NCBI GenBank assembly: GCA_050942615.1
Contig: JBMNNQ010000002.1
Coordinates: forward strand, 19,722 to 83,721
Reading direction: 5' to 3'
From: Dethiobacteria bacterium
GTDB lineage: Bacteria; Bacillota; Dethiobacteria; DTU022; UBA8154
Length of the DNA: 64,000 nt
Shown here: piece by piece, positions 34,263-52,410 of the stretch
Position numbering within the stretch: the stretch's first letter is position 1
How the letters are laid out: each line of letters begins with the position of its first letter
Translations under genes and position numbers: made by a program
Notes under the pieces: model-generated
Database searches by the model: none
Seen by the model: only the letters and a program-made list of their open reading frames with translations
Told to the model about the DNA's origin: nothing

Positions 34263-34482
34263 AATTCTTAATTTCCCTTAAAAACCTCCCCCCTAGACGC
34301 GGCGCCTCTGCAGTGTTCCTGGCCCTTCCATTGTTTGTATAAAAGATGGCCTATACTTAAAAAGCCTGCACAGGCTGGGTAAACCCTGGCTTGGCTATGG
34401 ATATGGAAACCCTTATAGCTTGGCTATGGATATGGAAGCCCATATAAATGGTATAATAAAATGGACAAAGGGGGTGTTTTCT

Positions 34483-35409: not shown

Positions 35410-35543
35410 TGCCAGCGGGTACTGGTTTATAATATAATATTATAACTATAAGATTGCGTTTCTTAATAACAATGTGACCGCTTTTAGCACGAAAATAGAC
35501 AGCGCTGAACATGACTATGACTATTGTAGAAAGGGGGATTTAT

Positions 35544-36116
35544 ATGGGCGAAATACCGATTATTAAAGATTTGCGGTTAACTGCCTATTTTCAAAAACTT
35601 TCTGCAGATTCCCCTTACCCCAGCGCCGGGTCATCCGCAGCCTTGACTGTTGCCCATGCTGCAGCCCTTTTTGCCATGGCCTGCCGGGTAAACCTAAGAA
35701 AAATTAAAGAGGGCTTATCTGCAGAGAAGGGAAACAACGGCCGGCAGGTTTTTTGGCAGGAAACCTTGGGGAAAGCAGAACTTCTTTTTGAACAAACGCT
35801 TGCATTGGCCCAGGAAGACGGTTTTGCGGTAAAAGATTTTATTGAAGGGGTTCCCCGGGGTGCGGAAAGGGCCACCGCCATCCCTTTGAAAATTGCCCGT
35901 TGTGCCGGGGAAATAATCATTTTGACCAAGGGCGCCCTTCCAAAATCTTATGTTCCTGTGCAGGCAGATGTGGAATGTGCCCGCTGTTTGGCAGCAGGGG
36001 GCAAACAGGCTGCCCTTACAGTAGCCCGCTATAATCTTCCCCTGCTTGATCAGGATAAAAGGGAAAGTTATGCTGACCAAATTTCCAAAGTTGATCAGGA
36101 TGGGGCAAGGCCTTGA
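35544..36116 (+). CDS. Formiminotransferase-cyclodeaminase C-terminal-like (FTCD_C / methenyl-THF cyclohydrolase-like) protein
   Basis: ADSPYPSAGSSAALTVAHAAALFAMACRVNL matches the folate-binding helical FTCD_C signature. RBS AAAGGGGGA precedes ATG 35544. Confidence 0.6.
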   Translation: MGEIPIIKDLRLTAYFQKLSADSPYPSAGSSAALTVAHAAALFAMACRVNLRKIKEGLSAEKGNNGRQVFWQETLGKAELLFEQTLALAQEDGFAVKDFIEGVPRGAERATAIPLKIARCAGEIIILTKGALPKSYVPVQADVECARCLAAGGKQAALTVARYNLPLLDQDKRESYADQISKVDQDGARP

Positions 36117-36257
36117 TACGTAAATTTCTACAATAATAGCCGTAATAGCCGGGCCTGTAAAGGCCGCAATCATAAATATTTTTTGCCGGCAGGGAAAATC
36201 ATATTTAAAAAGTTTTCGGTTTGGGAAAAATATAACAAAACCGGGTTGGGTAATTGC

Positions 36258-36461
36258 ATGCAAAAAAAAATCAGCCGGAAACATGGGCTGGGAAAGGCGG
36301 CTTGTGCTATGCACAGGATTAAAAAAACAGTATTTGTTACCTTAGCTGTTTTATTCTTAATTATCGGTGCTGCGGGTGTTATACTGCCAATTTTACCAGC
36401 GATACCGTTTTTACTGGTGGCCTCTTATTTTTTAACAAAGGGGACTGCACAGTTTAGCTAA
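36258..36461 (+). pseudogene. Truncated DUF454/YbaN-family inner-membrane protein
   Basis: GVILPILPAIPFLLVASYFLTKG matches the YbaN core, but the ORF stops after the first TM hairpin (about 67 aa versus about 125 aa). Confidence 0.35.
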
Positions 36462-36524
36462 GGGTACCCCGTTTTTTGCAGGTGTTAATCAAACATTTTT
36501 GCAAAGGAAACCAGAGCCCGGTGG

Positions 36525-36575
36525 GAAAGTTTTCTTACCTGATACCCAGGTAGTTTGTTTTGCAGGGAACTAACC
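36525..36575 (+). terminator. Rho-independent terminator candidate
   Basis: GC-rich hairpin (CAGGG..CCGGCCGG..CCCUG) followed by TTTTTTGTATTTT. Confidence 0.4.
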
Positions 36576-36639
36576 GGCCGGCGCCCTGGTTTTTTGTATT
36601 TTAACTGTTTTACAGGGAGGTTAGGGGAATGCCGTCAAA

Positions 36640-38325
36640 CTATTTTATGACCCTTAAGGGCCTCATCATATCATTGTCTTCATGTTCCAAGATATGGCAG
36701 TGCCAGACATAATCACCGGTATGTTCCTTAAAATGCATTACAATAGTTGTGACCTCCCCGGGTGTCGCCCTGGCTACGTCTTTAAGCCCTTTTTCGTAAT
36801 CTGCGGGCGGGGTTAAACTTTCCGGAACAAACAAATAGTTTCCGTCAGCATCAAAATCATCAGCGGCAAACGGTTTCCTACCTAATATTTCAAAGTTAAC
36901 CAAATGAACATGAATGGGGTGGGGAAAGGCAAAATGGTTTACCAGATGCCATATCTCTATAGTGTCCAGTTTGGCAATTTCTGTAGCCGGTTCATGCCAC
37001 ATGCGGTCGTTTAAAAGATGCAACACCCTGCCAAAGTGATCGGTAGTTTCATCCAGGTGCAAAGTTCTCTCCCTGTAAGCCAAAGCGGGGTTGATGCTGT
37101 GGTAGGGGAACAGATCTTCGGGCATAGCACTTGTATCCGGGTGTTTTAAGGGCAGTACAACCCTAAATTGCATAATCAGGCCGGTATCTTCATCAGCCGG
37201 CGGGGTGCTTCCCGGCCCCCCGTTTACCAGGTTTATGCTTTGCCCTTGAAATTGGGAAAAATCAATAACGACGTCGATTCTTTCTGCGGGTTCCAGAATG
37301 AAAGAATTAATGGCAATAGATTGCCGCAGCAGCCCTTGTTCTGTGCCTATTTGATAAAAAGAAGCCCCATTATCCAGGCTGAAATCATATGCCCTTAAAT
37401 TGGAGGCATTTAAAATTCGAAACCTGTATTTACGGGGTTCAACATCCAAATAGGGCCACAGTTTTCCGTTTACAGCTATCGTGTTGCCCAGAAAAAATGA
37501 GGGGGTTGACGGCACGGGTTTTGTTACCGGCGGGGTAGCGTTGTCCGGGTAGAATAAAGAACCGTTTTCATTAAAAGTTTTATCCTGGACTAGAAGGGGG
37601 ACCTCATAGGGCCTTTCAGGCAGATTTAACCTTTTTTCCAACCGATCCCTGATCAGGTAAAATCCAGCCAAGCCGGCGTACACATTTAACCTTGTGATGC
37701 CGACAGCATGATCATGGTACCATAAAGTGGCTCCGGGTTGATGATTAGTATATTCATAGACCTTTCTGGTAAAGTTTTGGCCTACTGTAGCAAAATTTTG
37801 GGTAAACCAGGCGTCTGGGTGGCCGTCGCTATGATCTGCAACATTGGCGCCGTGTAAGTGAACTACCGTTCTCACATCCGGGGTATCCATGGTGCCATGC
37901 AAGGTATGATCCACCGGTAACAGGTGTTTAAGGGGCAGGTTGTTGATCCATTCGACCTCAATAGCAGTATCCTTATGTACTTCAATAGTGGGGCCGGGGA
38001 CAGTGCCATTGTACCCCCAAACTGTAGTTGGGGGAAACAATTTATGAAACCTGTGTTTTGCCTCCTGCATGGTTATACAATAGGTTTTACGAAGGCCCTG
38101 CATCTCTATTTTCTGTTTACTGCCCGGGGGGTAGGCTGGGTAATGCTGCCGGGAAGCCCGGGTGCCCAAAGGGATTCTGCCGGGAAAACGGGGGGGGCTA
38201 ACAACTGCTGCATGTACATTACACGGTCTTGCCACTTTGGGAATGGGTAGCGGATCGACAAATTTTGGAAAGGTAGAGGGAGCGGCCGGGTTTACCTGGA
38301 ATTTTTTTTCAACATGTTTTTCCAT
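36640..38325 (-). CDS. Multicopper oxidase (CotA/laccase/bilirubin-oxidase type)
   Basis: Copper-binding motifs HLHGANV, WYHDHA and HCHILEHEDNDMM. No obvious signal peptide. Confidence 0.85.
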   Translation of the reverse strand: MEKHVEKKFQVNPAAPSTFPKFVDPLPIPKVARPCNVHAAVVSPPRFPGRIPLGTRASRQHYPAYPPGSKQKIEMQGLRKTYCITMQEAKHRFHKLFPPTTVWGYNGTVPGPTIEVHKDTAIEVEWINNLPLKHLLPVDHTLHGTMDTPDVRTVVHLHGANVADHSDGHPDAWFTQNFATVGQNFTRKVYEYTNHQPGATLWYHDHAVGITRLNVYAGLAGFYLIRDRLEKRLNLPERPYEVPLLVQDKTFNENGSLFYPDNATPPVTKPVPSTPSFFLGNTIAVNGKLWPYLDVEPRKYRFRILNASNLRAYDFSLDNGASFYQIGTEQGLLRQSIAINSFILEPAERIDVVIDFSQFQGQSINLVNGGPGSTPPADEDTGLIMQFRVVLPLKHPDTSAMPEDLFPYHSINPALAYRERTLHLDETTDHFGRVLHLLNDRMWHEPATEIAKLDTIEIWHLVNHFAFPHPIHVHLVNFEILGRKPFAADDFDADGNYLFVPESLTPPADYEKGLKDVARATPGEVTTIVMHFKEHTGDYVWHCHILEHEDNDMMRPLRVIK

Positions 38326-38490
38326 TAGATATTTCCTTTCTTTAGGTATTTGTATATTCTATGTTTTGTTTTCTGTTTTTGCCCGTTTTAAAAGGGGGTC
38401 CCAGGAAGAATTCAGGATAGGGGGCTACTGTGGCGGGGGGGCCAGGCGGTATTGGCTGCGAAACCTTTAACCGGCTCCTCCCGGCCCTGG

Positions 38491-38530
38491 GGAATAAAAA
38501 TAACAGCGCCGTAAACAGTGGCACGGCGCT
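38491..38530 (-). terminator. Rho-independent terminator for the MFS transporter gene (minus strand)
   Basis: ACAGCGCCGU/ACGGCGCUGU stem followed on the minus strand by a U-run (plus-strand AATAAAAATA). Confidence 0.55.
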
Positions 38531-38561
38531 GTCCTGGTGAACCGCTGTAAACAGATAAAAC

Positions 38562-39926
38562 TTAGATCAGGTGTTCAGAGGTAATTTTACCTTGTCTGGC
38601 CATTCTATAGACAGCATAGGCGGCTCCGGTGGCAACGATAATATAAATTAGTTGAAATTTAAAACAAGCAGCAAAGGCCGGGACAGTATATGCGCCGCCC
38701 TTAGTAATTACATCCAAAATAAAGCCCCACAGTTGCTGACACAAACCCGCCCCAAAAACCCAGATAAAGGTATTGGTGAAACCTAAGGCGGTGCCCAGCC
38801 TGCTTTTGGGAAAAAGTTCACGAATCAGCATAAAGTTGGTTGTAACAGTGAGCATTTGGGCAAAACCCAGGAAGAAATTAGTGATCATTAAGGATGTGAC
38901 AGTCATATTGCCGGCATTAAAGGCCATAAAAGCCCAAAAAACCAAAAACAGCACATTGCTGCCGATCAGGGTGCGGGTCAGGGTATATCTGTTTGTAAAA
39001 AAACCGGATGAGATGCTGCCCAGCATCAATCCGATAGACGCACATAAGAGAACATTACTGATCGTGATTGCAGGTACAGCCGGCATCAGGGTATGCATGT
39101 AGATGCCGATCCACAGGGATTGCAGGGTTTGCCCGCTGGCGCTGCTCCCCAGTGCTATGCAGGCACAAACCCATACGATCGGCGATCTAAGTATTTCTCC
39201 GGCGGAAATATTTTCAACAACAGCAGCTTTGTTTTCAACCTTGAAGGATTTGGTGATACCTGTTTCTAAAATTTTCTCCGGCGACTGCAACCCCATCTTG
39301 TCCGGGGCGTCGCGCAGAAAGAGGGCTACCACAACAGCCATCAAAAGACTGACACCCCCGACAAAATAAATAACCGCGTGGCGCCAACCGCAAAAGTTCA
39401 TCAACAGCTGCATAGGGGTGGTGGCCAACAAACTGCCTAAGTTGCCCAGGCCCATAAAAATGGCATAGACAACAACATATTCCTTTGTAGTAAACCAGTT
39501 CGCACAAGTTTTGGCACCGGCAACCATGAAACCCGATATAGCCAAGGCAACCAGTACACGTCCTAAAATAATACCCATTGAACTGTGGGCCGCGCCAAAA
39601 ACCAGGCAGCCGATCGCAGATAAAATTAATATTACAGACAACCCCATGCGCTGGCCATATTTATCAAGAAAAGTGCCCACCGGCCCCTGCGCAAAGGCAT
39701 AGGTCCAGGTAAAGGCTAAACCAACCGTGCCCCAAAGGGTGGCGCTGATGTTGATATCTGCTTGGATTGCGTTACCCATAACTGACGGCACAATGCGCTG
39801 GAAAGTGGCAAACATATAAACTATACTTACAATAACAAAAAAAACCCAGCGGGCGGTTTTAAACTTTTTAACCATTATTCCTTTTTCACTGTTGCCAATT
39901 GCTAAATTGCGTGCTATTTGATTCAT
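38562..39926 (-). CDS. MFS transporter
   Basis: A 12-TM profile. Start taken at MNQIARN with RBS GGAAGG 11 nt upstream; an ATG 12 nt further upstream is also possible. Confidence 0.8.
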   Translation of the reverse strand: MNQIARNLAIGNSEKGIMVKKFKTARWVFFVIVSIVYMFATFQRIVPSVMGNAIQADINISATLWGTVGLAFTWTYAFAQGPVGTFLDKYGQRMGLSVILILSAIGCLVFGAAHSSMGIILGRVLVALAISGFMVAGAKTCANWFTTKEYVVVYAIFMGLGNLGSLLATTPMQLLMNFCGWRHAVIYFVGGVSLLMAVVVALFLRDAPDKMGLQSPEKILETGITKSFKVENKAAVVENISAGEILRSPIVWVCACIALGSSASGQTLQSLWIGIYMHTLMPAVPAITISNVLLCASIGLMLGSISSGFFTNRYTLTRTLIGSNVLFLVFWAFMAFNAGNMTVTSLMITNFFLGFAQMLTVTTNFMLIRELFPKSRLGTALGFTNTFIWVFGAGLCQQLWGFILDVITKGGAYTVPAFAACFKFQLIYIIVATGAAYAVYRMARQGKITSEHLI

Positions 39927-40161
39927 GTTTAACACCAACCTTCCGGAGATATGTTTTTATGGGTTGCAAACATATTGTAGGTTTCAGGAAAAGTTTAAAA
40001 AACAAAAGAAGTGTCTTTCCCTTAAGGCGCCCGTTCCTAAGTGCCTGTCTTTCCTAGTGCCTGTCCTTATAGTATACGTTACAATGATGGACAATGAAAT
40101 AACAATTTCACCGTTCTGCATGCTATAATATAACAGCAGCAATGGAAACCGGGTGTAGTCA

Positions 40162-41019
40162 ATGAAAATTAGAAAATTAGCGGTTGTTCTGACTCCCATA
40201 GTTTTATTACTGATAGCAGCCGGGCTTCTTATTGGCAGGGTTTTGTTGTCCGGCCCGCGTGTTGAGGTGCTGCTTTATCATGAGCTTGAACCGGGTGGAT
40301 CACAGGAGTGGCCTATTATTGATCCGGAAAATTTTTACTGCCAACTTGAAGCCCTTTTGGCACACGGCTGGGAGCCTATAACCTTAGAGGATTTTGCCTC
40401 CTGGCAGCAAAACCAGTTAAGGCTGCCCAATAAATCGTTCCTACTGACCTTTGATGATGGGGGGGAAAGCATCTATCATTATGCTTATCCTTATTTATTA
40501 GCAAAGCAGATACCGGCTACCATATTTTTGATCGCAAAATACCATGATCCCAGCCATGTGTTAACAGAAGAGGTCTTGCCTCCTAAATTAACGGCGGCAC
40601 AAATTCAGGAAATGTCCCGCGCGGGGATAATTAGCTTTCAAAGCCATGCCTATGATCTACACCGGGAAATTGACGGGGAGCCGGCTATTTTGGCCCTGCC
40701 TCCCGCGGCGGTGCTGGCAGATCTGCAAAAATCCAGACAGGTAATCAGCAGACTGACCGGGGAAGAAGTGCATAGCGTTGCCTACCCCTCTGGTACGGTG
40801 GATCAGAAAGTGATCAAGATGGCCTGGGAAGCAGGTTTTAACACAGGTTTTGCAGGGAACATTCAAGGTGCAGCACATAAAAAAGAAACAATGTCTGTCA
40901 AACGTTTTCCCTTGGACAACATATCTTTGGATGTTTTTAATAATTATTATGAAACCTTTGATCGATACCATAAACCACCTTTTTTATTTTTACGCAAATT
41001 ATATAGGAAGGTAAAATGA
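40162..41019 (+). CDS. Polysaccharide deacetylase (NodB-homology domain) with N-terminal membrane anchor
   Basis: LLTFDDGGESIYHYAYPYL, IPATIFLIAKY, and conserved His motifs. Confidence 0.75.
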   Translation: MKIRKLAVVLTPIVLLLIAAGLLIGRVLLSGPRVEVLLYHELEPGGSQEWPIIDPENFYCQLEALLAHGWEPITLEDFASWQQNQLRLPNKSFLLTFDDGGESIYHYAYPYLLAKQIPATIFLIAKYHDPSHVLTEEVLPPKLTAAQIQEMSRAGIISFQSHAYDLHREIDGEPAILALPPAAVLADLQKSRQVISRLTGEEVHSVAYPSGTVDQKVIKMAWEAGFNTGFAGNIQGAAHKKETMSVKRFPLDNISLDVFNNYYETFDRYHKPPFLFLRKLYRKVK

Positions 41020-41020
41020 A

Positions 41021-41431
41021 TTGACAAGGAAAAATATTGTTACGTTCATAGTATTTATGGCAGTATTACTGGGCGGGTATTATGTTTACAATAATATGTT
41101 TCCTGTTGCAAGGCCCATACAATGTCCTTCAATTGAAGCTATAACAGCTATTAACATTTCAAATGACGACAATAAGGAAAGTAAAATACTTGGTACGGAC
41201 TTTGCAAAAACGGCCATATACATTAGTAATTCAAAGCCCACCAGAACTAGAAGTGTTAACGACACCCCAACAGTAAGGCCTCATTATAAAATTGAAATCT
41301 TGGCCGCAGAAAAAATGTTCAATTATTATGTTTACGAAAAAAATAATAACGTATACATTGAACGCCCGTATGAAGGAATATATATCATAGATAGACAAGT
41401 TGTTAATATTATATCCAGGCGATTCCAATGA
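41021..41431 (+). CDS. Hypothetical membrane-anchored protein
   Basis: TTG start 2 nt after the previous stop. N-terminal TM helix. No family recognised. Confidence 0.4.
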   Translation: MTRKNIVTFIVFMAVLLGGYYVYNNMFPVARPIQCPSIEAITAINISNDDNKESKILGTDFAKTAIYISNSKPTRTRSVNDTPTVRPHYKIEILAAEKMFNYYVYEKNNNVYIERPYEGIYIIDRQVVNIISRRFQ

Positions 41432-41472
41432 TGCAGGAATTTTGCAATAAAAACTTATTAGGGGATGAAGGT

Positions 41473-41946
41473 ATGTCTTTAGAACTAAAAATTCCGGGCA
41501 GGGGTGAGATTAGGCTTAAAAAAATAATTTTTGATTTAAATGGTACCCTGACGGTAGACGGGGAGCTGCACCAAAAAACCCTTTTCCTATTAAAAAAGGT
41601 GGCGGGGGTTTTGGATGTTCACATCCTGACGGCCGACACTTTGGGGGTGGCTGCGCAGATCGGCCGGCAAAACCATATAAATGTACAAGTTGTAGCCGGT
41701 GAAAACACCTCTGCGGCCAAGGTTAATTTTATAGAGCTCGCAGGGCCTGCTGAAACCATGGCAGTAGGTAACGGGACAAACGACGCCGGGATGTTGGCAA
41801 AGGCAGCTATTGGTATTGCGGTTTTAGGCCCGGAAGGTTGCGCAGTAGAAGCCCTTCGCGCTGCAGAACTGGTGGTTAACAATATTAACGATGCCCTCTG
41901 TATGATTTTAAAGCCCCAGCGCCTGATTGCCTCCCTTCGCCGCTAA
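41473..41946 (+). CDS. HAD-superfamily phosphatase resembling the soluble P-type-ATPase catalytic domain
   Basis: DLNGTL (motif I), GNGTNDAGMLAKAAIGIAV (motif III, P-type-ATPase-like). Confidence 0.6.
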   Translation: MSLELKIPGRGEIRLKKIIFDLNGTLTVDGELHQKTLFLLKKVAGVLDVHILTADTLGVAAQIGRQNHINVQVVAGENTSAAKVNFIELAGPAETMAVGNGTNDAGMLAKAAIGIAVLGPEGCAVEALRAAELVVNNINDALCMILKPQRLIASLRR

Positions 41947-42074
41947 AAGTGTATTTCACTATTTGCTGGATAATTCGTTGATTATGTTCCCAAAGTGCTA
42001 TTGTTGGCTTTGTCAGCAATGGGTTATAATTATGTAAAAAGGGGTGATTAGTTTGAAAAATTACCCTGTTATTA

Positions 42075-42287
42075 TTGAACAAGATGGGAAGGGGTATGTT
42101 GTCTCTTGTTTCTGGTTTGAATTGCATCGGGGCTCTTGAAAAGGTTGGGTATGTGGTAGTCAGGCAAAAATTACAAAAATTACCTCCTATAACTGTACCA
42201 AATCATAAGGAACTTCGTCCGAGGTTGCTGCAAAAAATACCCAATGATGTGGATCTTACTGTCGAAAATTTTATTTTATTATTGTAA
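42075..42287 (+). CDS. Degenerate HicA-like toxin ORF (possible pseudogene)
   Basis: ALEKVGYVVVRQK....ITVPNHKELRPRLLQKIPNDVDLTVENF resembles HicA (LLEKDGWxLVRxKGSHHxFKH...TVPHH..DLxxGTLRSILKQAGL) but the His cluster is lost. A HicB-like fragment (YPVIIEQDGKGYVVSC) sits just upstream in another frame. Confidence 0.3.
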   Translation: MNKMGRGMLSLVSGLNCIGALEKVGYVVVRQKLQKLPPITVPNHKELRPRLLQKIPNDVDLTVENFILLL

Positions 42288-42675
42288 AAACACAGTAAAT
42301 TTTGCTGCTTCGATCAAAATAGTTTGGGGACAGGTTCTACTTCAGACTCTATGGAAGAAAATAAAAAAATGGTCAAGAGGAAGACCGTTTTAACCGGTGC
42401 TTCCTTTTTTTGTTTTTATTTACAAAAGGTTAATGAACACAAAAAAGATGTACTTGTATGTTAACCTTTCTGATCACCAGTTAAAGCCCCTCCCTTTTTT
42501 TCTGGTTCTTCGCAGCCTGCTGGGTTTCTTTATCCAAGGAGGAATTACTTTCCATAAAACTGTGTTTTGCAAAGTTTATACTTTGTTTAGATTTTGTTTA
42601 CAGAAAAGTAATAGCTACCCGCGCTATGCAGATAAAAACCAGTACATCGTAAAGTCCAGCGAAGAGGATAATTAT

Positions 42676-43572
42676 ATGGTTACTACCTATACAGAGCAAA
42701 AAAATGAGCCTTTATTCAATAAAGAGAACAACCCTTTTCATGAGGAAAGGGTTAAAGACATAGAGCGGATTTTAGATGCCCTGGCAGGCAATTTAAGAGA
42801 ACAGGTCATCGTGACGGAAAATCCCGATAGCGGCAAGACACTTTCCGGCAAACTATCCGAAGGCCAGATCCCCGCTCTAATTAACGCCCTAGCCTCTTTT
42901 ATGATAAAACAGGAATTTAGCAGCGGCAGGGGCGGGTTGGTTAATTTAGCCAACGACATTTACATTCAAGAGGTGCAGGGAACGGCAAAGGTCAATGCAG
43001 ATGGAAGCCTGGAAAATATTCTCGGGGCAGCTACTGTTTCCGGCCTGGATGAAGCGGGCCGGGCCCAGGAAATAAGCTTAGAGGTTTTCTTTCAACTAAG
43101 TGATGTTAACTCTACCAGGGTAACCAAACCGGATCTTACGGGGGAAAAGGTCATCAACCGGGAAGAAAGGGATTTTAACAAGCTCTATCAGCCTACAGCG
43201 GAAAAATTTGTAGGCAAATTCAAAAATGATATCCTGATGGAAAAGGACGGCAGGTTTGTAAAAATTGGCGAAAGGCGGCTGGAAATTACCCTGCTGGATG
43301 AAAAGGAAGCTAAGGGTCATTACCGCGAAGAGCTTTGGGAGGGGTATGAAAAATACGCCAATTCTTTTCAGTCCTATATTTTTGAGGCCAAATTCAGCGA
43401 TGAGGGGGACGTCAACAACGCCACCCTGGAGGGAACAACGGAAGAGGGCGCTGAGGTCAAGGGAACTATCTACTTCAATGGTTATGATGCCTTCATTTAT
43501 TTAAATTTAAGCCAAAACCAACGAAACAGCAGTGTAATACATGACTCCACCTTCCGTCCAGACTTTGACTGA
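42676..43572 (+). CDS. Hypothetical protein (298 aa)
   Basis: RBS GAAGAGGA precedes ATG 42676. The upstream ATG 42397 extension is AT-rich and unlikely to be coding. Confidence 0.5.
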   Translation: MVTTYTEQKNEPLFNKENNPFHEERVKDIERILDALAGNLREQVIVTENPDSGKTLSGKLSEGQIPALINALASFMIKQEFSSGRGGLVNLANDIYIQEVQGTAKVNADGSLENILGAATVSGLDEAGRAQEISLEVFFQLSDVNSTRVTKPDLTGEKVINREERDFNKLYQPTAEKFVGKFKNDILMEKDGRFVKIGERRLEITLLDEKEAKGHYREELWEGYEKYANSFQSYIFEAKFSDEGDVNNATLEGTTEEGAEVKGTIYFNGYDAFIYLNLSQNQRNSSVIHDSTFRPDFD

Positions 43573-43619: not shown

Positions 43620-44108
43620 GTGGAAAAAATTATTGAAACCGAAGAACTGACCAAAATATATCCTAACGGGCGGGGCATAGAAGACGTTAGTCTGGAAGTC
43701 TGCCAGGGCGAAATTTTTGGGTTTTTGGGCCCTAACGGGGCGGGGAAAACTACGGCCATGAAAATAATGACCGGGCTGATCAAGCCTGACCGCGGTGCAG
43801 TCAGGCTGTTTGGCTATGATATAATTGAGGAGTATGAGGCGGCGATGACCGGTGTGGGCGCCTTAATCGAGGTAGCCGAGTCCTATCCCTACCTTAGCGC
43901 TTATGACAACTTGAAACAGTTTGCCAGATATTATCCCCGGGTGGATAAACACAGAATTGAGGAGGTTCTGGAGATTACCGGCATGGCCCGGTATAAGCAT
44001 GAAAAACCCAAAAAATTTTCCCTGGGGATGAAACAAAGGCTGGGTTTGGCCGCAGCAATTCGGCATGCAGTGGGGACGGTTCCCGTTGCATTGTCCGATC
44101 AAAAATGA
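43620..44108 (+). pseudogene. 3'-truncated ABC transporter ATP-binding gene
   Basis: Walker [10 protein letters not shown] and signature FSLGMKQRLGLAAAI are present. Immediately afterwards the sequence runs into a hairpin repeat (44068-44093) and stops. Walker B, D-loop and H-loop are missing. Confidence 0.65.
44068..44093. repeat. Hairpin repeat copy 1 (CAGUGGGG-ACGGUU-CCCGUUGCAUUG)
   Basis: One of three copies of a roughly 26-nt hairpin motif. This copy sits exactly at the truncation point of the ABC ATPase gene. Confidence 0.5.
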
Positions 44109-44476
44109 CATACTGGTTCTAAAAGCCTTTTGCATGGAATTACTAAATAAATGATTACATGGATGTAGAATAAAGGTAAAACTATGCTTTTATAGGAATG
44201 TTCCATTGCACAGATATTCACCATAGCCTGTATCTTCCCTGGAACAAGCGAAGCATTATGCAAAGAATTACGAAGGATAAATAGAAGTTATTTGTGACAG
44301 TGGTATGCCAGATACGGAAAGAAACGGTGGGAACCATATATGGTTCCCACCGTCCTATATATCGAGCCTTTGATGCTAATAATAAAGTTTCAATAAAAAA
44401 TGATTCATCCATTGGCATCATAGGCGGCGCTGACGGTCCGACAGCGATATATGTTTCAGGTAATCCATTAAAAACT

Positions 44477-44566
44477 ATGATGGTTCCGGCAATTCTACTG
44501 GCCGTTATACTTTTTGCTGTTGGTTTTGCAGTGGGCTATATTGTTAAAGGCAAACGGCAGAAATAG
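44477..44566 (+). CDS. Candidate 29-aa hydrophobic micropeptide ORF upstream of mgtA
   Basis: MMVPAILLAVILFAVGFAVGYIVKGKRQK is a single TM helix plus a basic tail. There is no convincing RBS. It is also the 3' end of a longer 90-aa ORF (44294-44566). Confidence 0.25.
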   Translation: MMVPAILLAVILFAVGFAVGYIVKGKRQK

Positions 44567-44706
44567 ATGCTGGGAAATTTAAGAAAACGTGTTTAAAGGC
44601 ATCAAACAAGCAGGGGTGATGCCCTCATTGCCCCGCATACTGGTACGCACTAGCAGATTAAGGTGACATAACAGTCTAAAGATTTGAAGAAAGGGGATTT
44701 AATAAA

Positions 44707-45099
44707 ATGGGGAAAGTGGGGAAAATTATTGCTATATGTTTAGCCTTAATTATTGTGTTAGGTATTGCGTCATTTATTTCATATAGTAAATTTAATGTGT
44801 GGAACCCTTTTTCAACAATTAATGGGTTAATTCAGGTACCAAGCAGCACAAGAAAAACTATGTATTCTAAAAAATACGGGGCTATCCTGTATTTTGGCTG
44901 TCTAGGGAGTGGGGTACAGCATATTTGTCCCACTTTTTGGTGTACACAATGCCTGGTATCATTTTGTTATTCCAAGAATTACATATCTAAAGATATGGTA
45001 TGGTATAATACCCCAAATAGGGCACACAATCTGAATAATGGTGGATTGTTTTTGTTGCCCATTTCGGCCAAACCACGATACTGTAACCTGCTGTATTGA
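44707..45099 (+). CDS. Hypothetical Cys-rich signal-anchored protein
   Basis: RBS AAAGGGGA upstream. N-terminal TM helix. Cys-rich C-terminal half. Its stop overlaps the mgtA region. Confidence 0.4.
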
Positions 45100-45113
45100 A
45101 GGGGGTTATCTTG

Positions 45114-47837
45114 ATGGGTAAAAATGGGGACAGGTTAACCACCCCCCGGGTTGCGCAAGCCAAAGGTGTTGAATTAACGGGAAGTGGATTTTACGAAGCA
45201 TCCATGAAAGAAACTAGTGCAGTGTTGCAAGAATTAAACACTTCCCTTAAAGGACTTACCAAGAATACCGTGGATGAAATGCGTGGCCTCTATGGTGACA
45301 ACATGGTTACATATGGCAAAAAGAAGTCCTTGTTGCAAGAAATTTACGAGGCCTTTGTCAATCCATTTACAGCAATTCTTTTTGGTCTCGCAATTGTATC
45401 CTTTATAACAGATGTGCTTTTGGCTGAACCCGGTGACAAGGACCTGACAACCGTGATCATTATTACAACGATGATAATGATTGCTGGGGCCCTCCGTTTT
45501 ATACAGGAAACCCGCGGCGGAAATGCGGCAGAACGTTTGAGCCAAATGATTAAAACCACCACTGCTGTAGAGCGGCAGGGAATTGGTAGAAAAGAAATCC
45601 TTCTTGAGGATGTTGTGGTCGGTGACATTGTTTATTTGGCGGCCGGAGATATTGTGCCCGCCGATGTGCGCATCCTAAAGTCTAAAGATCTGTTTGTAAA
45701 CCAGTCCCCCCTAACAGGTGAAAGTGAACCGGTTGAAAAGTCTCCCAGCATAGTAAAACAAGGGGAATATGACACCGCAACTGAATATCACAACCTTGCC
45801 TTTATGGGGAGTACTGTGGTTATCGGTTCGGCAACCTGTGTGGTCATTGCCACAGGCGATAACACATTCTTTGGGACTATCGCAAAAGGATTGACAGCCA
45901 AGCCGGTTCAAACAAGCTTTGAAAAAGGCGTGAACTCCGTTTCCTGGGTCCTAATCAGCTTTATGTTGGTGATGGTCCCGGTGGTGCTGTTTATCAATGG
46001 CTTCACAAAGGGCAATTGGCTGGAAGCCCTTCTGTTTGCCGTTTCCGTGGCGGTAGGCTTAACGCCGGAAATGCTCCCCACGATTGTTACCACCGCCTTG
46101 GCTAAAGGTGCTGTGGCAATGTCGCGGAAAAAGACAATTATTAAAAGTCTTAATGCAATACAAAACCTTGGTTCCATGAATGTGCTGTGCACCGATAAAA
46201 CAGGAACTCTAACGCTGGACAAGGTTGTACTATTGTATCATTTGGATGTACATGGCAATGAGGATGTACGGGTGCTCCGCCACGCTTTTCTAAACAGCTA
46301 TTATCAGACTGGATTGAAAAATTTGATGGACGTATCGATCATTGAACACACCACAAGAGAAAGTGCTAATGAAAACACTTTGCAGGGTTTGTCAACCAAT
46401 TATGACAAAGTAGATGAAGTCCCCTTTGATTTCCAGCGCCGGCGTATGAGCGTAGTGGTTGAGGATAAAAAGGGCAAGACCCAGATGGTTACCAAAGGTG
46501 CTGTGGAGGAAATGCTCTCCATCAGTAATTATGTGGAATACAAAGGCAAGGTTGAACCAATGACCGATGCAATCAAGCAGGATATTTTGGTGACGGTTGA
46601 CAACCTAAATGACCAGGGGATGCGCGTCATTGCCGTGGCACAAAAAACCAATCCCTCACCTGTGGGGGTATTCTCAGTTAAGGACGAGGCGGATATGGTG
46701 TTGATGGGATACCTTGCTTTCCTTGACCCGCCAAAGGAAACAACTGCCCCGGCGATTGCGGCGTTGCAGGACCACGGCGTGGCCGTAAAAATACTAACTG
46801 GAGATAATGACCGTGTCACGCGTAGCATCTGCAAACAGGTTGGTCTGAAAGTCGACAATCTGCTGCTTGGGCCAGATATTGAACGCATGTCAAAGGATGA
46901 GCTAAGGTCAGCTATTGAGATCACCAACGTTTTCGCAAAACTTTCACCGCAGCAGAAAGCAACAATAGTATCGATGTTGAGGGAAAACGGCCATGTGGTT
47001 GGGTATTTGGGGGATGGCATCAATGACGCTGCCGCTATGGAGGCGTCCGACGTGGGCGTTTCTGTAGACACCGCTGTTGACATTGCCAAAGAATCCGCGC
47101 AGGTTATCCTACTGGAAAAGGATCTCATGGTTTTGGAAAACGGTGTCATTGAAGGCAGGAAAACCTACGCCAACATGATCAAGTATATTAAAATGACAGC
47201 CAGTTCAAACTTTGGTAATGTGTTTTCTGTGCTTGTCGCCAGTGCATTCTTACCTTTCCTACCTATGGCGGCAATTCATCTGGTTCTCCTTAATCTCATT
47301 TATGACATTTCTAGCACGGCAATTCCATGGGATAATGTTGACAAGGAATTTCTGAAGGAACCGCAAAAATGGGATCCTTCATCAATAAGCAAATTTATGA
47401 TTTGGATTGGCCCCACAAGCTCGGTATTTGACATTACTACTTATGGACTCATGTATTTTATCATTTGCCCGTTAATGACGGGGGGACTGCTTTTCCATGA
47501 AATAAACAACCCCTTGATGCAGACCTACTATATTGCATTGTTTCAGGCCGGGTGGTTTGTGGAGTCAATGTGGAGTCAGACCTTGGTTATTCATATGCTC
47601 CGCACCCCAAAAATTCCGTTCATACAAAGCAGGGCCTCCATTTCGGTTGTCGTTCTGACGTTCACTGGTATTGCTGTTTTGACTGCAATCCCCTATACAT
47701 CCTTGGGTGCCTCAATTGGTCTTGCGGCTTTGCCGGCGGTTTACTTTGCCTGGCTGGCTTTGACCATTATCGGTTACATGGCCCTTGTAACTGTCTTCAA
47801 AAGCATCTATATCAACAGGTATGGTAAGCTGTTGTAA
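45114..47837 (+). CDS. mgtA: Mg2+-importing P-type ATPase
   Basis: P-type motifs [25 protein letters not shown]. Overall length and TM architecture fit MgtA/MgtB. RBS GAAGGGGG lies 8 nt upstream of ATG 45114. Confidence 0.85.
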
Positions 47838-47972
47838 ATGGAAAGCATAGTGCACGATTTCCAAATAATGTGTTATAATTCAATTTAGGGTTTCCCATTA
47901 AAAAGAGCGCAGTCAGGGCTATAAATTTACGTTTAAAACGATCACTGCCTGTGATCTGGGGGAGGGAAAAAT

Positions 47973-48533
47973 GTGCAAAACAATACTGGTTTGCTGGATA
48001 AAAAAAGGCTGTTGCAGATATTTGGTTATCTCAACGAAAGATTGAAGGAAAATCAGCTGCAGTTGGAAATAACGATCTATGGCGGCACTATTATGACCTT
48101 GGTCTATGATCACAGGCCCGCAACCAAAGATATAGACTGTGTTTTTTCTGAAATAAATTACAAATTATTAAACAATATATTAGATCTTACTAAGTATGCC
48201 TTTAATCTTCCTGATGGGTGGATAAATGAAGAAATTAAAGAACCGTTGAAATCTATTATAAAAGAAGATAAAGAAACCTATAAAACATATTCTAATTTAA
48301 AACTATTAAAACCCAGAGGTGAACAGCTACTGGCCATGAAAATATTATCTGCCAGGTCAGAACCAGCCAAAGATTTTGTCGACGCCTATATATTGTGCAA
48401 AGATTTGAATATCACAACCAAGGAGGAGTTGCTTGCGGTATGTTCAAAATATATACCGTTAACCCTGGTTGGGGAGAGGCAGGTTGTTTTTATTAAGTAT
48501 TTAGGAGAGGATTTAGGTTATGATTGGCAATAA
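47973..48533 (+). CDS. Minimal nucleotidyltransferase-fold protein (AbiEii-like GGT...DID motif)
   Basis: LEITIYGGTIMTLVYDHRPATKDIDCVF fits the hG[GS]x9-13Dh[DE]h NTase signature. Confidence 0.4.
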   Translation: MQNNTGLLDKKRLLQIFGYLNERLKENQLQLEITIYGGTIMTLVYDHRPATKDIDCVFSEINYKLLNNILDLTKYAFNLPDGWINEEIKEPLKSIIKEDKETYKTYSNLKLLKPRGEQLLAMKILSARSEPAKDFVDAYILCKDLNITTKEELLAVCSKYIPLTLVGERQVVFIKYLGEDLGYDWQ

Positions 48534-48897
48534 GTACCTACAGGAATTATTCGAATGCCCCGATGAAGATAGCGCCTTAAACCAATTGTTGGAAATATTA
48601 AAATCAAAGGATGCCAAATTAATGGACAGTCTTGACAGGCCTGTGGATCTAAACTTATGCAACAATGAAGAAATAATATTTCTGACTAAGGTGGCAGCTT
48701 TAGTAGATTATTACCTGCAACTGCATGGTATCAAGGTCCCAGCATGGATTAGGGATGAAAAACTGGAATTTGATCGGCCGTATTACCATTCTCAAAGACT
48801 GAGTGATTTTGAGAAATTTAGGTTACAATATACCAACCCTTCCCCATTTAAGACACGAAATGTTTATTTTGATCTGAAAAGTATTGAAAGGATATAA
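48520..48897 (+). CDS. Hypothetical protein, overlapping partner of the NTase-like gene
   Basis: A 125-aa ORF that overlaps the preceding gene by 14 nt. No family recognised. Confidence 0.4.
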   Translation: MIGNKYLQELFECPDEDSALNQLLEILKSKDAKLMDSLDRPVDLNLCNNEEIIFLTKVAALVDYYLQLHGIKVPAWIRDEKLEFDRPYYHSQRLSDFEKFRLQYTNPSPFKTRNVYFDLKSIERI

Positions 48898-49430
48898 ACC
48901 AGGCAAACCTTCTTTAAGGGAGTTACAGTTTAATTGACAATTTTAGGTATAATGGCAACGCTTCTAGCTGGAATATTAATACTTATTGCCGGAGCAAAAA
49001 CAAAAAGGAAATGGCTAATGGTTTTATCTGCCATCCCGCTAATAGCTGCTTTAAGCCAAATCGGAATATTGTTTATAATGTTTTTAGAAATGGTCTTGTA
49101 ATTTGAGGTCAGAGGGGCTGCCCTCAATAAGGAAAATGCGTTAAAGATTTCAAAAAGCTATAACTTTTGTGGTGGTGCTAAAGAAGCAAGCATATTTCTG
49201 GAATTAATTGTTGGTTAAAAAAGGGGAAATATTTTTCTGAAACGATTGGAAGGTCCTGTATTTCCTGCTATGAAGGGGTATTTTAATGTTAAATTACTGT
49301 AAAATTCAGTTTATTAAGGGGATAACTTAGAAAAAACAAGGCGATGGTTATTATTTGGCCGAAATGTCCAAACCCCCTGTAAAATTATACGTCTATAAAG
49401 GTGAAGGTAAAAACAAGGGGGAGCTGTATT

Positions 49431-49946
49431 ATGAAAAAATTATTTTTAGTCGTAACGTTGATTGCTGTCGTAATAGCAGGCGCCTGCTTGCTTACAAACC
49501 CTGCCCGCAAGGAAATTGATCAGGACATTCCGGTGTTGACGATTACAACACCCCGGGATTTGTTCAGCCCGTTTATGAGCTCAATGTTCGGCTTTGAATT
49601 AGTGGTAAATGCGCCCGGTGAGCCTGCAATTTATACCTATGCCTGCGATAAAGGCACCTTTTGTACCTATAAGGACGCTAAAGTAACCCACCAAGGCAAT
49701 AATCTAACAACTGCTGAGAAAGTATACTGGACACCGGTTGAGGACGGCGAATATGTATATTCAGGCGAAATGGATAAAATCCTGATAACTATCACGGCAT
49801 TGGATCAGGAGAAGAAAGCAATTGCCCGCGGCACAGCGGCTATCGAACATGATCCCGAAGGTGGGTGGTTTAAGTTTACCGGGGAGGCTGCAGCAAGCCA
49901 ATCCCTGGATGAAACACCCGACCCTGTTCAGGGCATAAAAAAATAG
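49431..49946 (+). CDS. Hypothetical secreted/membrane-anchored protein
   Basis: RBS AAGGGGGAG. N-terminal signal/anchor MKKLFLVVTLIAVVIAGACLL. No family recognised. Confidence 0.45.
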   Translation: MKKLFLVVTLIAVVIAGACLLTNPARKEIDQDIPVLTITTPRDLFSPFMSSMFGFELVVNAPGEPAIYTYACDKGTFCTYKDAKVTHQGNNLTTAEKVYWTPVEDGEYVYSGEMDKILITITALDQEKKAIARGTAAIEHDPEGGWFKFTGEAAASQSLDETPDPVQGIKK

Positions 49947-49956
49947 AATTTTTAGT

Positions 49957-49985
49957 GCTGCAACGGGGACGGTTCCTGTTGCATT
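49957..49985. repeat. Hairpin repeat copy 2 (same orientation)
   Basis: GCUGCAACGGGGACGGUUCCUGUUGCAUU. Stem CAACGGG/CCYGUUG, loop GACGGUU. Confidence 0.5.
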
Positions 49986-50280
49986 CCTGTTCAATAGTTT
50001 ACGAGGTAGGCTCTGACCAAAACGATCTCCTTTTCATTTATCCAATAACTGGTTCACATAAGCATTATTTCTTGCTATATTGTGGACTATACCCCTGCTG
50101 ACTACCCATTGCTGTCATAAAAGTTCCGGAAAGTATCTTTTTTCCAAGCTTTTATTATAAATTGCCTCGCAGTTATTTCCTTTCATTATTGCATGGCAAT
50201 AACCTGTTGAGCTTTCCATTTGAGTACCCCTAGGCATAAAATAGTCCCAAGGGAATTTTAATATGTAATTTGTTATGGTG

Positions 50281-50323
50281 CAATGGGAACCGTCCCCGTT
50301 GCATCCCCGTCCCGTTGCATTTC
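50281..50323. repeat. Hairpin repeat copy 3 (inverted orientation, with partial tandem duplication)
   Basis: Reverse complement reads GCAACGGGGACGGUUCCCAUUG. Together with copy 2 it brackets about 300 bp of AT-rich non-coding DNA, a MITE-like architecture. Confidence 0.5.
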
Positions 50324-50565
50324 ATAGAAACAAATCCTCAGAAATGGCAGGAAGACAAGTATTACAGGTAGCGGCGCATCATTTCCAGGTAGCGGCGCAT
50401 CATTTCTATTATGCGCACTAAAACAGGGGTAGAAAGAAAGGATACCATGCTTGGAAAATGGCCTCTATAGACTCATCTATTTCCCAGGATTTTTATTTAT
50501 TGTGTTGATATTAGTTGACATAGGCTGGTATTTGTTTTAAACTAATGTCAAGTGGAGGTGGTTTT

Positions 50566-51324
50566 ATGAACATCGGCGATGAACTTATTACTGCCCAGGA
50601 GTTAGCCGATTCCTTAAGTCTTTCTGTGGATACAGTCTGGAGGTACACCCGGGAAAAGAAAATACCCTGTGTAGAAATCAGCGGCAGGCAGTACCGGTAT
50701 AACAGGCAAAAGGTGCTCAAGGCGTTATCCGGGGAAACTGATCCAACCCTGGTAAGGGAAGAACCCGCCCCCTACCAGGGTGAAAAAAAACTGACCTACA
50801 GTGATTATGCAAAAATTCCCGAAGAGCCCGGCTTTCAGCATGAGGTTATTGATGGGATACTAGTGCGGGATCCCTCCCCTTCTTTCCAGCATCAAAGAGT
50901 TTCTCGGAGATTGCAGCGAATACTTGAGGATTATTTCCACAAAACAGATCCAAGAGGTGAAGTCTTTGATGCCCCGCTGGATTTGAATTTGGATGTGCAT
51001 ACCGTGGTACAGCCGGACCTGATGTACCTGCCCGGCAGCCGTCCAGCGCGCAATGATCCGGTAGACAGTGTCCCGGAGTTAATCGTGGAGGTTTTATCAC
51101 CTTCCAGCAGCCGAAAAGATCGGGTGTTGAAACTAAACCATTACCAGTCATCGGGAGTTACGCACTACTGGATTCTAGATCCGGAGGGCGCCTTTATTGA
51201 AGCCTATGAGCTACAGGATGGGCTTTATGTATCCATAGTCAGGGCATGTGAAGGTATTTTTTCCCACCCCAGTTTTCCGGATCTTTCCTTCAACATTGAC
51301 GAACTGTTTAGCAAGCCGGACTAG
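50566..51324 (+). CDS. Fusion protein: excisionase-family HTH domain + Uma2/DUF820 (PD-(D/E)xK restriction-endonuclease-like) domain
   Basis: N-terminus ITAQELADSLSLSVDTVWRYTREKKIPCVEISGRQYRY is a Xis/MerR-type HTH. The C-terminus carries the Uma2 pattern (EVIDGIL...PDLMYL...PELIVEVLSPSS...YWILDP). RBS GGAGGTGG. Confidence 0.65.
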   Translation: MNIGDELITAQELADSLSLSVDTVWRYTREKKIPCVEISGRQYRYNRQKVLKALSGETDPTLVREEPAPYQGEKKLTYSDYAKIPEEPGFQHEVIDGILVRDPSPSFQHQRVSRRLQRILEDYFHKTDPRGEVFDAPLDLNLDVHTVVQPDLMYLPGSRPARNDPVDSVPELIVEVLSPSSSRKDRVLKLNHYQSSGVTHYWILDPEGAFIEAYELQDGLYVSIVRACEGIFSHPSFPDLSFNIDELFSKPD

Positions 51325-51597
51325 CTACCGGGGATTGCAAGGGACCTCGCCCCGGGTTGCTGACATGAAAGGGTTCTAAACATCCTTTAGTGTAAATGGC
51401 AGCCAAATTATGGTTACCATGGATTTTATTGACAAAAGCATAAAGCTCCGGAAGGAAAATATTCTTCTCCAACTTCATGGTTTTAATAGCCCCATCCGTA
51501 ACAACAAAAATCGGTGCAATTTATAAATTTTAAAATATGAAAATTGATTCCGTGGCATAATCATGGTATAATTATGTCACGAAGGGAGCGAAGGATT

Positions 51598-51858
51598 ATG
51601 CCAAAAATTATTCCAATTAGAGATTTGAAAAATACAAGTGAAATATCCCAAATGTGTAAAGAGTCCAATGAACCTATTTATATTACGAAAAATGGGTATG
51701 GGGATATGGTTATTATGAGCATGGAATTATATGAAGAAAAAATGTTTATGCTGGATGTATATAATAAACTTATTGCGGCAGTGGAACAAATAAAACAGGG
51801 AAAGGTACTTGACGGGGATGCTTCAATAAAAGCAATAAGGGAAAAATACAATGTATAG
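51598..51858 (+). CDS. Type II antitoxin, Phd/YefM family
   Basis: IPIRDLKNTSEISQMCKESNEPIYITKNGYGDMVIMSMELYE is the Phd/YefM signature. RBS AGGGAG. Confidence 0.65.
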   Translation: MPKIIPIRDLKNTSEISQMCKESNEPIYITKNGYGDMVIMSMELYEEKMFMLDVYNKLIAAVEQIKQGKVLDGDASIKAIREKYNV

Positions 51859-52159
51859 ATTGAATGTTTCTAAACTAGCACATCAGGATTTGGATAAAAT
51901 TGTTTCATACGTTGCCATAAACCTTGCCAGTCCAAGTGCAGCCACCGATCTCCTTAATAAGGTGGCGGAATGTTATGCTTATTTAAAGGACAATCCTTTT
52001 ATGTACGCGAAATGCCAGGATAAGCAGTTGGAAGAAAAAGGTTGTCGTAAGGTATCAACCAAAAGTTATGTGCTTGTTTATAAAATTAATGAAAACGCTA
52101 GAACTGTTAACATTTTGCGTTTCTTTTACGGGGCACAAGATTACGTGAAATTAATATAA
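51851..52159 (+). CDS. Type II toxin, RelE/ParE family
   Basis: A 102-aa protein overlapping the antitoxin stop by 8 nt. C-terminus ...ARTVNILRFFYGAQDY is typical of ParE/RelE toxins. Confidence 0.6.
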   Translation: MYRLNVSKLAHQDLDKIVSYVAINLASPSAATDLLNKVAECYAYLKDNPFMYAKCQDKQLEEKGCRKVSTKSYVLVYKINENARTVNILRFFYGAQDYVKLI

Positions 52160-52410
52160 GATTTGCTGGTGAGAAAAGGTTCCATAATTTGAAAAAACTG
52201 TAACAGGTCTATTGTGCTTGCAGCTGCTCAGGCGGTTGTGAGCGTGAATAAAACCTGCCCCTGTTAAAACTTTATATAAAATTACACGTCTATAAAGGTA
52301 AAAAGGGGGATCTATGGTATGAAGAAACTTGGCGGATGTATATCATATTATTTTTAAGGAAGGGAAAACAGGGCAGGCTGGAGAAATTCCCCATGTAACC
52401 GGTATTATGG

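Follow-up and report, generated by a model that had tools for sequence, protein, structure and literature searches.

In the stretch of 64,000 nucleotides (nt) analysed here (hereafter the window; contig JBMNNQ010000002.1 of assembly GCA_050942615.1), the gene of an ABC-2-type (ATP-binding cassette) ATPase is truncated beside a 27-nt hairpin repeat, and two further copies of the repeat, mutually inverted, enclose the remains of a transposase gene 6 kb away. The source, a metagenome-assembled genome (MAG) of a Dethiobacteria bacterium, is related to Dehalobacterium. Between the truncated gene and the transposase remains lie small open reading frames (ORFs), mgtA, a nucleotidyltransferase (NTase) gene pair and a gene for a secreted protein, and on their far side an excisionase-type helix-turn-helix (HTH)::Uma2 fusion gene and a Phd/ParE toxin-antitoxin module. 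This gene content had been recognised in an earlier reading of the DNA (the original prediction) and is borne out here by matches in Pfam, NCBIfam and PADLOC. The region has the look of a mosaic, in which the hairpin is linked to a REP-associated tyrosine transposase (RAYT; REP, repetitive extragenic palindrome). Stretches of other assemblies are cited below by L numbers.

The consensus TGCAACGGGGACGGTTCCCGTTGCA, at up to 3 mismatches, has exactly three matches in the window, at 44066-44090 (plus strand), 49959-49983 (plus) and 50279-50303 (minus), whereas shuffles give a chance expectation of none; beyond these three copies, the best match to the repeat has 10 mismatches in 27, which is background. 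The three copies, with the second and third inverted, had been correctly predicted. A position table of 95 copies defines a unit of 27 nt, A-TGCA-MY-GGGGACGGTTCC-TK-TTGCA-T, at whose limits conservation ends and which forms a near-perfect 12-1-12 palindrome. Copy 1 is a solo repeat at 44065-44091 (plus), copy 2 occupies 49958-49984 (plus) and copy 3, separated from it by 293 nt, occupies 50278-50304 (minus). The 64 kb of the source genome covered here hold these three copies, all within 6.3 kb. Folded as DNA, the hairpin reaches -5.6 to -7.7 kcal/mol. A strand asymmetry, hinted at by G·T pairs on one strand, was rejected, as both strands fold at similar energies. No Rfam family matches the hairpins or any other part of the region (gathering thresholds over the whole window; E <= 1 over 43.5-52.5 kb), and promoter-like or terminator-like sites show no enrichment over shuffles. 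Beside copy 3 stands a partial extra half-copy (50305-50323, minus), and a half-copy of the form TGCAnnGGG(G)A also precedes many full units elsewhere (L006, L019, L027, L032, L040, L043, L059, L083 and others). Such a recurrent stutter could have been left behind by cleavage and rejoining, or it could stem from slippage.

The repeat is widely dispersed. Scanning one genome per species (596 Gb) with the pattern TGCANNGGGGACGGTTCCNNTTGCA, we found 98 copies of the exact core in 85 stretches from at least 23 assemblies of Clostridia type, against about 0.3 chance matches expected by an arithmetic estimate for 21 specified bases. Among the carriers are Syntrophaceticus schinkii Sp3, a Syntrophaceticus MAG, Thermacetogenium UBA5472 and many Clostridia-type MAGs. 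The highest exact-core count in a single assembly is at least 18, and true copy numbers are higher, since the flanks show degenerate copies that an exact-core pattern passes over. A scan of viral contigs gave 0 matches. Only 35% of the repeat centres fall inside long ORFs (stop-to-stop, at least 120 amino acids (aa)), compared with 82% of all positions at the same loci (P = 8e-25). The copies are arranged as singles, tandem pairs and inverted doublets with short spacers, which resemble REPINs (REP doublets forming hairpins); short inverted doublets are found in L048, L051, L067 and L085. A CRISPR origin of the tandem copies was rejected, the start-to-start spacing being only 33-56 nt and the copies only 2. 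At L004 201-1497 (MAG JAAZMI), two tandem copies on each side, the sides mutually inverted, bracket a single gene; this gene was considered as a RAYT and rejected, being uracil-DNA-glycosylase-like instead.

A RAYT gene lies near the repeat in four of the stretches (L068, L027, L077 and L044) and is flanked by inverted repeat copies in three. L068 103-891 encodes a 262-aa protein that matches Pfam Y1_Tnp (2e-15), with two repeat copies upstream and two inverted copies downstream. Against the NCBIfam model of REP-associated tyrosine transposases, NF047646 (cut-off 80), the L068/L027/L077/L044 set scores 79.5, 80.9, 80.1 and 83.0 bits, whereas under the IS200 model NF033573 (cut-off 55) three of them reach 20-27 bits and L044 has no match; this scoring was done on the intact relatives, not on the window relic. 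In an alignment of 20 sequences, H-x-H and RY-H-NP are invariant in the family, and the intact relatives show HVH and RYIHNNP. A family profile matches 4ER8, the Escherichia coli TnpAREP structure, at 4.5e-05 and an ISDra2-type (IS200-type) TnpA only at 0.4; the profile was needed, as a search of PDB with a single sequence found nothing. C-terminal residues 220-260 match HTH_24, HTH_23, HTH_28 and Sigma70_r4, in every case below the Pfam cut-offs. The RAYTs of three units that share the repeat core are 58-59% identical to the L068 protein. In L044 a repeat copy lies about 200 nt from a 34%-identical RAYT, in a non-canonical orientation. An 81%-identical RAYT, P0242, belongs to a MAG that shares the source's taxon label.

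It is also evident that L068, L027, L077 and the window have a common geometry, in which one repeat precedes the ATG by about 40 nt and another, inverted, follows the stop codon. In the window this arrangement surrounds a RAYT gene relic at 49985-50277 (minus strand), recovered by blastn, tblastn and DNA alignment. By blastn, window 50109-50304 corresponds to L068 231-36 (78% identity) and window 49959-50109 to L068 1014-844 (70%); by tblastn, RAYT residues 1-49 are found at window 50237-50088 on the minus strand (58% identity, 4.6e-11), and no other RAYT-like sequence was detected in the window by this search. The relic retains the 40-nt leader and, starting with the ATG, the first ~42 codons of the gene, followed by the last ~12 codons and the 3' tail. 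About 615 bp are deleted, including the HUH motif and the catalytic tyrosine motif (Y-x-x-x-N-P), and an in-frame TGA stands where relatives have CAA. Copy 3 is thus the upstream terminal repeat of this unit, 40 nt before the relic's ATG, and copy 2 its downstream terminal repeat; copy 1 has the same orientation as copy 2. Across more than 100 loci and the window, the interior of the pair is single-copy and matches only the ends of RAYT genes. No target-site duplications, which it had been suggested to look for here, were found around the relic or copy 1. Judged from its sequence, the unit 49958-50304 is a dead relic of a member of the RAYT/TIRYT group (TIRYTs being RAYT-like genes flanked by inverted repeats) and not a functional member; with the deletion and the stop codon, any further movement would need a RAYT encoded elsewhere. 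The pair had been predicted to bracket about 300 bp of non-coding DNA like a miniature inverted-repeat transposable element (MITE). Those ~290 bp are in fact the two ends of an internally deleted RAYT/TIRYT gene, which had been overlooked when the region was described as encoding neither integrase nor transposase; as for integrases, the description holds. Taken together, the repeat is a dispersed REP-type family, with tens rather than hundreds of copies per genome, that is linked to RAYT.

The ATPase gene that ends beside copy 1 retains codons 1-147 (43620-44061, plus strand; Pfam ABC_tran, 4.8e-21, profile positions 2-123 of 137). The ORF in which it is embedded, 43620-44108 (162 aa), has a Walker A and a signature motif and no Walker B, and the junction and the repeat supply its last 15 codons. 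Homologous ATPases are 241 aa long and share 90% identity with this ORF over residues 1-147 only. The closest relative contig, L088, is 92% identical over window 34466-42109 and has the same gene order upstream. By blastn of the window against L088, the DNA homology to L088-L092 ends at 44060/44061; in the alignment, L088 and the window are near-identical up to ...GCAGCAATT and then diverge, and the repeat starts 3-4 nt later. The predicted truncation at the hairpin is thereby substantiated, with homology stopping at 44061 and the repeat running from 44065. Beyond the break L088 continues with the rest of the ATPase gene, an ABC-2 permease, a histidine kinase and a response regulator (3.4 kb), followed by the gene of a 142-aa protein. 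The five-gene cassette (a ~420-aa protein, ATPase, permease, histidine kinase and response regulator) is intact in three contexts besides L088, including Dehalobacterium formicoaceticum, and no repeat copy was found at the intact-cassette loci of relatives (four genomic contexts).

The first gene of the cassette is also 5'-truncated in the window (42397-43572, plus strand). Only its residues 76-391 match the 417-424-aa homologues (67% identity to the L088 417-aa protein by BLASTP, query 76-391, subject 103-417), about 100 N-terminal codons having been lost, and L088 has ~390 nt at this gene that the window lacks. The first 75 codons of the called ORF resemble read-through of non-coding DNA. 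With both genes truncated, the whole cassette is decaying, and 43620-44108 and 42397-43572 are best annotated as pseudogenes, the remains of a transporter/two-component cassette that has been lost. Looked up as exact proteins, the truncated ABC protein, MgtA and the Xis-type HTH::Uma2 protein led only to contigs arranged like the window and revealed no strain variants. Identical MgtA was found in 8 contigs from several samples (4 shown), all with the window arrangement including the repeat, and identical Xis::Uma2 in five contigs, again all with this arrangement, which is therefore fixed in the sampled population. Two findings had been named in advance as speaking against the original prediction, a ubiquitous REP-type repeat and relatives with the same truncated ABC gene lacking the downstream block: a REP-type family is indeed present, at tens of copies per genome, but no such relative was found.

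By blastn, homology to L088 stops at 44060 and resumes at 49523, and the block from 44062 to ~49400, for which the proposed syntenic comparison shows absence from L088, stands where L088 has the 3' part of the ABC ATPase gene, the ABC-2 permease, the histidine kinase and the response regulator. From this comparison the DNA to the right of the ABC truncation is accessory, being absent from the closest syntenic relative with an intact ABC/permease/histidine kinase/response regulator operon. In the block, ahead of mgtA, a gene encodes a small membrane protein with an OadB-like segment (44294-44566, plus strand; Pfam OAD_beta, 8.5e-08, 32 bits; NCBIfam matches far under cut-off). In the 5' part of this called 90-aa ORF sits a perfect palindrome, predicted as 28 bp at 44325-44352 and present, although its full extent is 30 nt (44324-44353; DNA fold -16 kcal/mol, z = -8.2). 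It is not followed by a T-run and shares GGGAACC/GGTTCCC with the repeat arms. We considered it as a second repeat family and rejected this, because it is absent from all 90 non-source-population loci among the 92 fetched to that point.

Downstream lies mgtA (45114-47837, plus strand), whose product, 907 aa long as public contigs have it, is a P-type ATPase that imports Mg2+ and matches E1-E2_ATPase and related domains in Pfam; Rfam detects no M-box before the gene. Its two nearest relatives share only the coding sequence with it: one (88% protein and 86% nucleotide identity) has unrelated neighbours, and the other (83% and 79%) lies within a serine-recombinase/relaxase element. A search of these mgtA-relative loci for a donor, with the block and a repeat at its end, found none. 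The NTase pair spans 47973-48897 on the plus strand and consists of a DUF6036/AbiEii-like nucleotidyltransferase gene (47973-48533; Pfam DUF6036 3e-05 and AbiEii 1.3e-04; PADLOC AbiEii 2.4e-04) and an overlapping ORF for a 125-aa partner (48520-48897).

On the right lies a 171-aa secreted protein or lipoprotein gene (49431-49946, plus strand), whose homologue in L088 is likewise placed, behind the response regulator. The window product is 81% identical to the L088 142-aa protein over the mature part, and window 49523-49878 is 82% identical at the nucleotide level; the L004 protein (MAG JAAZMI) is 79% identical over its full length, and in its signal peptide and C-terminal tail the window protein is closer to the L004 allele than to that of L088. 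L088 and L089 are 99% identical up to past the lipoprotein gene and then diverge, and the window differs from both. At L089 5834-6038 we observed the last ~47 codons of the 125-aa partner gene (window 48752-48895, 94% nucleotide identity), downstream of the lipoprotein gene, whereas the window partner gene lies upstream of its lipoprotein gene. The differences among L088, L089 and the window downstream of the lipoprotein gene, together with this displaced fragment, suggest a strain-variable spot shaped by several events. The synteny comparison reaches ~50.3 kb, where the relatives' contigs end, and a metagenome scan with ComEC for synteny on the right returned only relatives of 31-35% identity, which are uninformative. 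No repeat remnant was found at the right boundary (48.9-49.45 kb), the best match having 12 mismatches in 27, as does background. From the alignments, the right edge of the block could lie anywhere from ~49.4 kb to repeat copy 2 or 3, within limits of 48.9-50.3 kb.

Beyond the relic lie three plus-strand genes: the excisionase-type HTH::Uma2 fusion (50545-51324; Pfam HTH_17 1.5e-08 and Uma2 6.4e-32; TIGR01764), a Phd/YefM antitoxin gene (51544-51858; Pfam PhdYeFM_antitox, 5.5e-07) and a ParE toxin gene (51851-52159; Pfam ParE_toxin, 5.1e-15). PADLOC matches link the fusion's Uma2 domain to PDC-S03, a candidate defence family (3.9e-39), and its HTH to mad1 (2e-06). A Phd-type antitoxin gene 75% identical to window 51613-51744 is found at L044 6549-6680 (an Alkaliphilus-labelled MAG), adjoining the distant RAYT (34%). 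Between copy 3 and the promoter region of the Xis-HTH::Uma2 gene there is a perfect tandem duplication of 2 x 21 bp, CAGGTAGCGGCGCATCATTTC (50365-50406). A 25-nt motif, AAAATTAYACGTCTATAAAGGTRAA, occurs twice (0 expected), at 49381-49405 just upstream of the lipoprotein gene and at 52278-52302 upstream of comEC, and may be a shared promoter or operator. Elsewhere in the window, Rfam identifies a T-box leader (13629-13930, 105 bits) and a cobalamin riboswitch (62936-63121, 134 bits), and no others.

We hold with good confidence that four things are jointly established as given above: what the repeat is, the presence of a transposase relic, where the break lies and which genes were replaced. In this account the hairpin belongs to a RAYT-type Y1 (HUH) tyrosine transposase as its REP-like terminal repeat. 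If the enzyme behaves like E. coli TnpAREP, it would recognise the folded repeat in single-stranded DNA and would cut and rejoin beside it. The ancestral five-gene cassette lost everything past ATPase codon 147 in a replacement of at least 5.3 kb, and small ORFs, a horizontally mobile mgtA and the NTase gene pair were gained in place of the lost part; copy 1 is a solo repeat at the exact left edge of the replacement, and the break could have been RAYT-mediated or due to REP-REP recombination. TnpAREP and IS200/IS605 (IS, insertion sequence) Y1 enzymes are known to recognise a folded repeat in single-stranded DNA and to cleave and rejoin a few nucleotides from the hairpin foot, with no target duplication (PMC3333891, PMC3479197, PMC8266576), and this known Y1 cleavage fits both the missing duplications and the 3-4 nt that separate the junction from the repeat. 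Several observations weigh against this account. The right boundary has no repeat or half-repeat; the causal link between copy 1 and the truncation consists solely of their 3-4-nt adjacency; and no donor of the block with a terminal repeat was found. Moreover, hairpin stability as DNA is only moderate (-5.6 to -7.7 kcal/mol), the C-terminal HTH matches fall short of Pfam thresholds, the TIRYT motif GGGGWSAS is matched at only 7/8 positions by the consensus GGGGACGG, the P0242 RAYT is tied to the source through its taxon label only, and the repeats and RAYT content of the source genome are judged from the 64-kb window alone. That the junction repeat came with the incoming DNA or took part in the break, rather than being inserted later, is a reading that we find attractive but stop a little short of calling probable.

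The chief competing account would have an unrelated illegitimate deletion or horizontal replacement cut the operon, with a solo copy hopping later from the neighbouring unit into junction DNA that had newly become non-essential. REP-type repeats favour extragenic or dispensable DNA, a once-active unit lies 6 kb away, the other boundary has no repeat and the cassette was decaying anyway, its first gene being short by ~100 codons. Set against this are the position of the repeat, 3-4 nt from the homology break, a precision that is unlikely unless the junction is a preferred target, and its presence already in all 8 contigs with identical MgtA. Such a late arrival is possible, although we incline to doubt it. 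At the other extreme, a RAYT acting on copy 1 and its own terminal repeat may have made the breakpoint itself, so that the 6.2-kb stretch from copy 1 to copy 3, with mgtA, the NTase pair, the lipoprotein gene and the transposase unit, would be a REP-bounded composite with cargo that the transposase moved or recombined. The orientation of copy 1, a right boundary that synteny does not fix and lipoprotein termini nearer L004 than L088 keep this composite viable; we regard it as unlikely. If true, it would mean that in Clostridia a "domesticated" Y1 transposase of a REP/RAYT system can capture genes and replace operons on the kilobase scale.

The original prediction itself saw a single AT-rich island at 44.1-52.2 kb, bounded by hairpins, with a MITE-like pair at 49957-50323 perhaps mobilised in trans. 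In its favour, the block from 44062 to ~49400 is absent from the relative, the genes are of accessory type (toxin-antitoxin modules, the NTase pair, Uma2), MITEs arise as internally deleted transposons flanked by terminal inverted repeats (TIRs), and the span shows the highest tetranucleotide deviation in the window. It is also the lowest-GC 8.1-kb span (44062-52160, 41.7% against 46.1% for the window), so that its being AT-richer stands; "markedly" does not, as the deviation is a modest 4.4 points, mgtA has an average 46.0% and the upstream genes at 41021-43572 have 41.1%. However, the lipoprotein gene inside it has a positional homologue in the relative, absence from which extends over 44062 to ~49400 only, and the DNA past that gene differs among L088, L089 and the window, which suggests several events. 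Pfam scans of the region found no integrase domain, no tRNA or tmRNA gene was found as an integration site, and there are neither bounding direct repeats of attachment-site (att) type besides the REP copies nor target duplications, as would mark an integrase-type genomic island. The hairpin pair does have TIRs, but its interior is a relic of a single-copy RAYT gene rather than a repeated miniature element, and no direct repeat flanks it. One island reaching to 52.2 kb is therefore improbable, and a mosaic is preferred. Least plausible of all is that the hairpins are host regulatory elements (terminators or operators of a DNA-binding protein) unrelated to transposons. Copy 2 does lie 12 nt past a stop codon and scores terminator-like, and a near-perfect 12-1-12 palindrome is what a dimeric binding site would show; but most copies have no T-run, terminator-like sites are not enriched over shuffles, Rfam has no match, and the same 27-mer recurs in many unrelated genomes, in tandem and inverted doublets and with fixed geometry around RAYT genes, so that we consider this very improbable.

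These results recast an apparent MITE-bounded island as a RAYT/TIRYT unit in decay, together with its REP-like repeats and an accessory region of mosaic make-up, all of known kinds. The locus offers a clean case of a repeat no more than 4 nt from a gene-truncating rearrangement and hence a concrete substrate for asking whether RAYTs drive rearrangements. The repeat core is constant despite RAYT divergence (58-59% identity; 34% in L044), which would fit either a tight protein-DNA constraint or horizontal spread.

Comparison with known systems places the unit among the RAYTs. With IS200/IS605 elements and their miniature derivatives (palindrome-associated transposable elements, PATEs, and MITEs) it shares a Y1 HUH enzyme, subterminal hairpins, the lack of a target-site duplication and deletion products that keep only the ends. 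It differs from them in IS200-model scores of 20-27 against a cut-off of 55, in having no tnpB, in bearing one palindrome, inverted, at both ends where those elements have a left and a right end of different kinds, and in a relic that is single-copy. Like the classical REP/RAYT systems (REPtrons) and REPINs of Escherichia and Pseudomonas (Nunvar 2010, PMC2817692; Bertels & Rainey 2011, PMC3116915; Ton-Hoang 2012, PMC3333891), it combines extragenic palindromes with a domesticated-type Y1 transposase that has inverted flanking copies, and inverted doublets like REPINs occur in other genomes (e.g., L048, L067, L085). The window pair, in contrast, is spaced by 293 nt of gene relic and is not a REPIN. 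Unlike classical REPs, the repeat lacks a GTAG tag and is present in tens rather than hundreds of copies per genome; its core is near-identical in assemblies whose labels name different families and classes, where classical REPs are confined to a species, and the profile similarity to 4ER8 is weak (4.5e-05).

The closest parallels are with TIRtrons, in which TIRYTs are flanked by inverted repeats sharing GGGGWSAS, and some of whose repeats make up families of moderate abundance, with members standing singly, as dimers or in clusters (Di Nocera et al. 2013, PMC3733652). Most TIRYTs belong to TnpAREP subclass 2.1, taxonomically widespread long proteins that end in an HTH, beside whose genes REP-like structures have not been reported (Quentin et al. 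2018, PMC6006769). RAYT Group 1, which corresponds to subclass 2.1, is reported in Clostridia, with ~12 copies of flanking 16-mers (Bertels et al. 2017, PMC5581495). The family described here likewise has a single Y1 HUH gene of ~260 aa with a putative HTH-like C-terminal tail (weak matches), inverted-repeat flanks that contain a GGGG-A-C-x-G motif, and a dispersed, moderately abundant repeat family with tens of copies per genome; the consensus GGGGACGG matches GGGGWSAS at 7/8 positions, and some variant copies (GGGGACAG) match at 8/8. The family fits in several respects a putative assignment to subclass 2.1 / Group 1, made by features and not by tree. Unlike an intact TIRtron, the window copy is a deletion relic, and unlike TIRtrons and subclass 2.1 in general, the flanking repeat is a compact 27-nt REP-like palindrome. 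Earlier surveys described Group 1/subclass 2.1 RAYTs without obvious REPs beside the gene; in contrast, a 27-nt REP-like family is tied to such RAYTs here, in many anaerobic-digester Clostridia (Syntrophaceticus, Thermacetogenium and Dehalobacterium-like MAGs).

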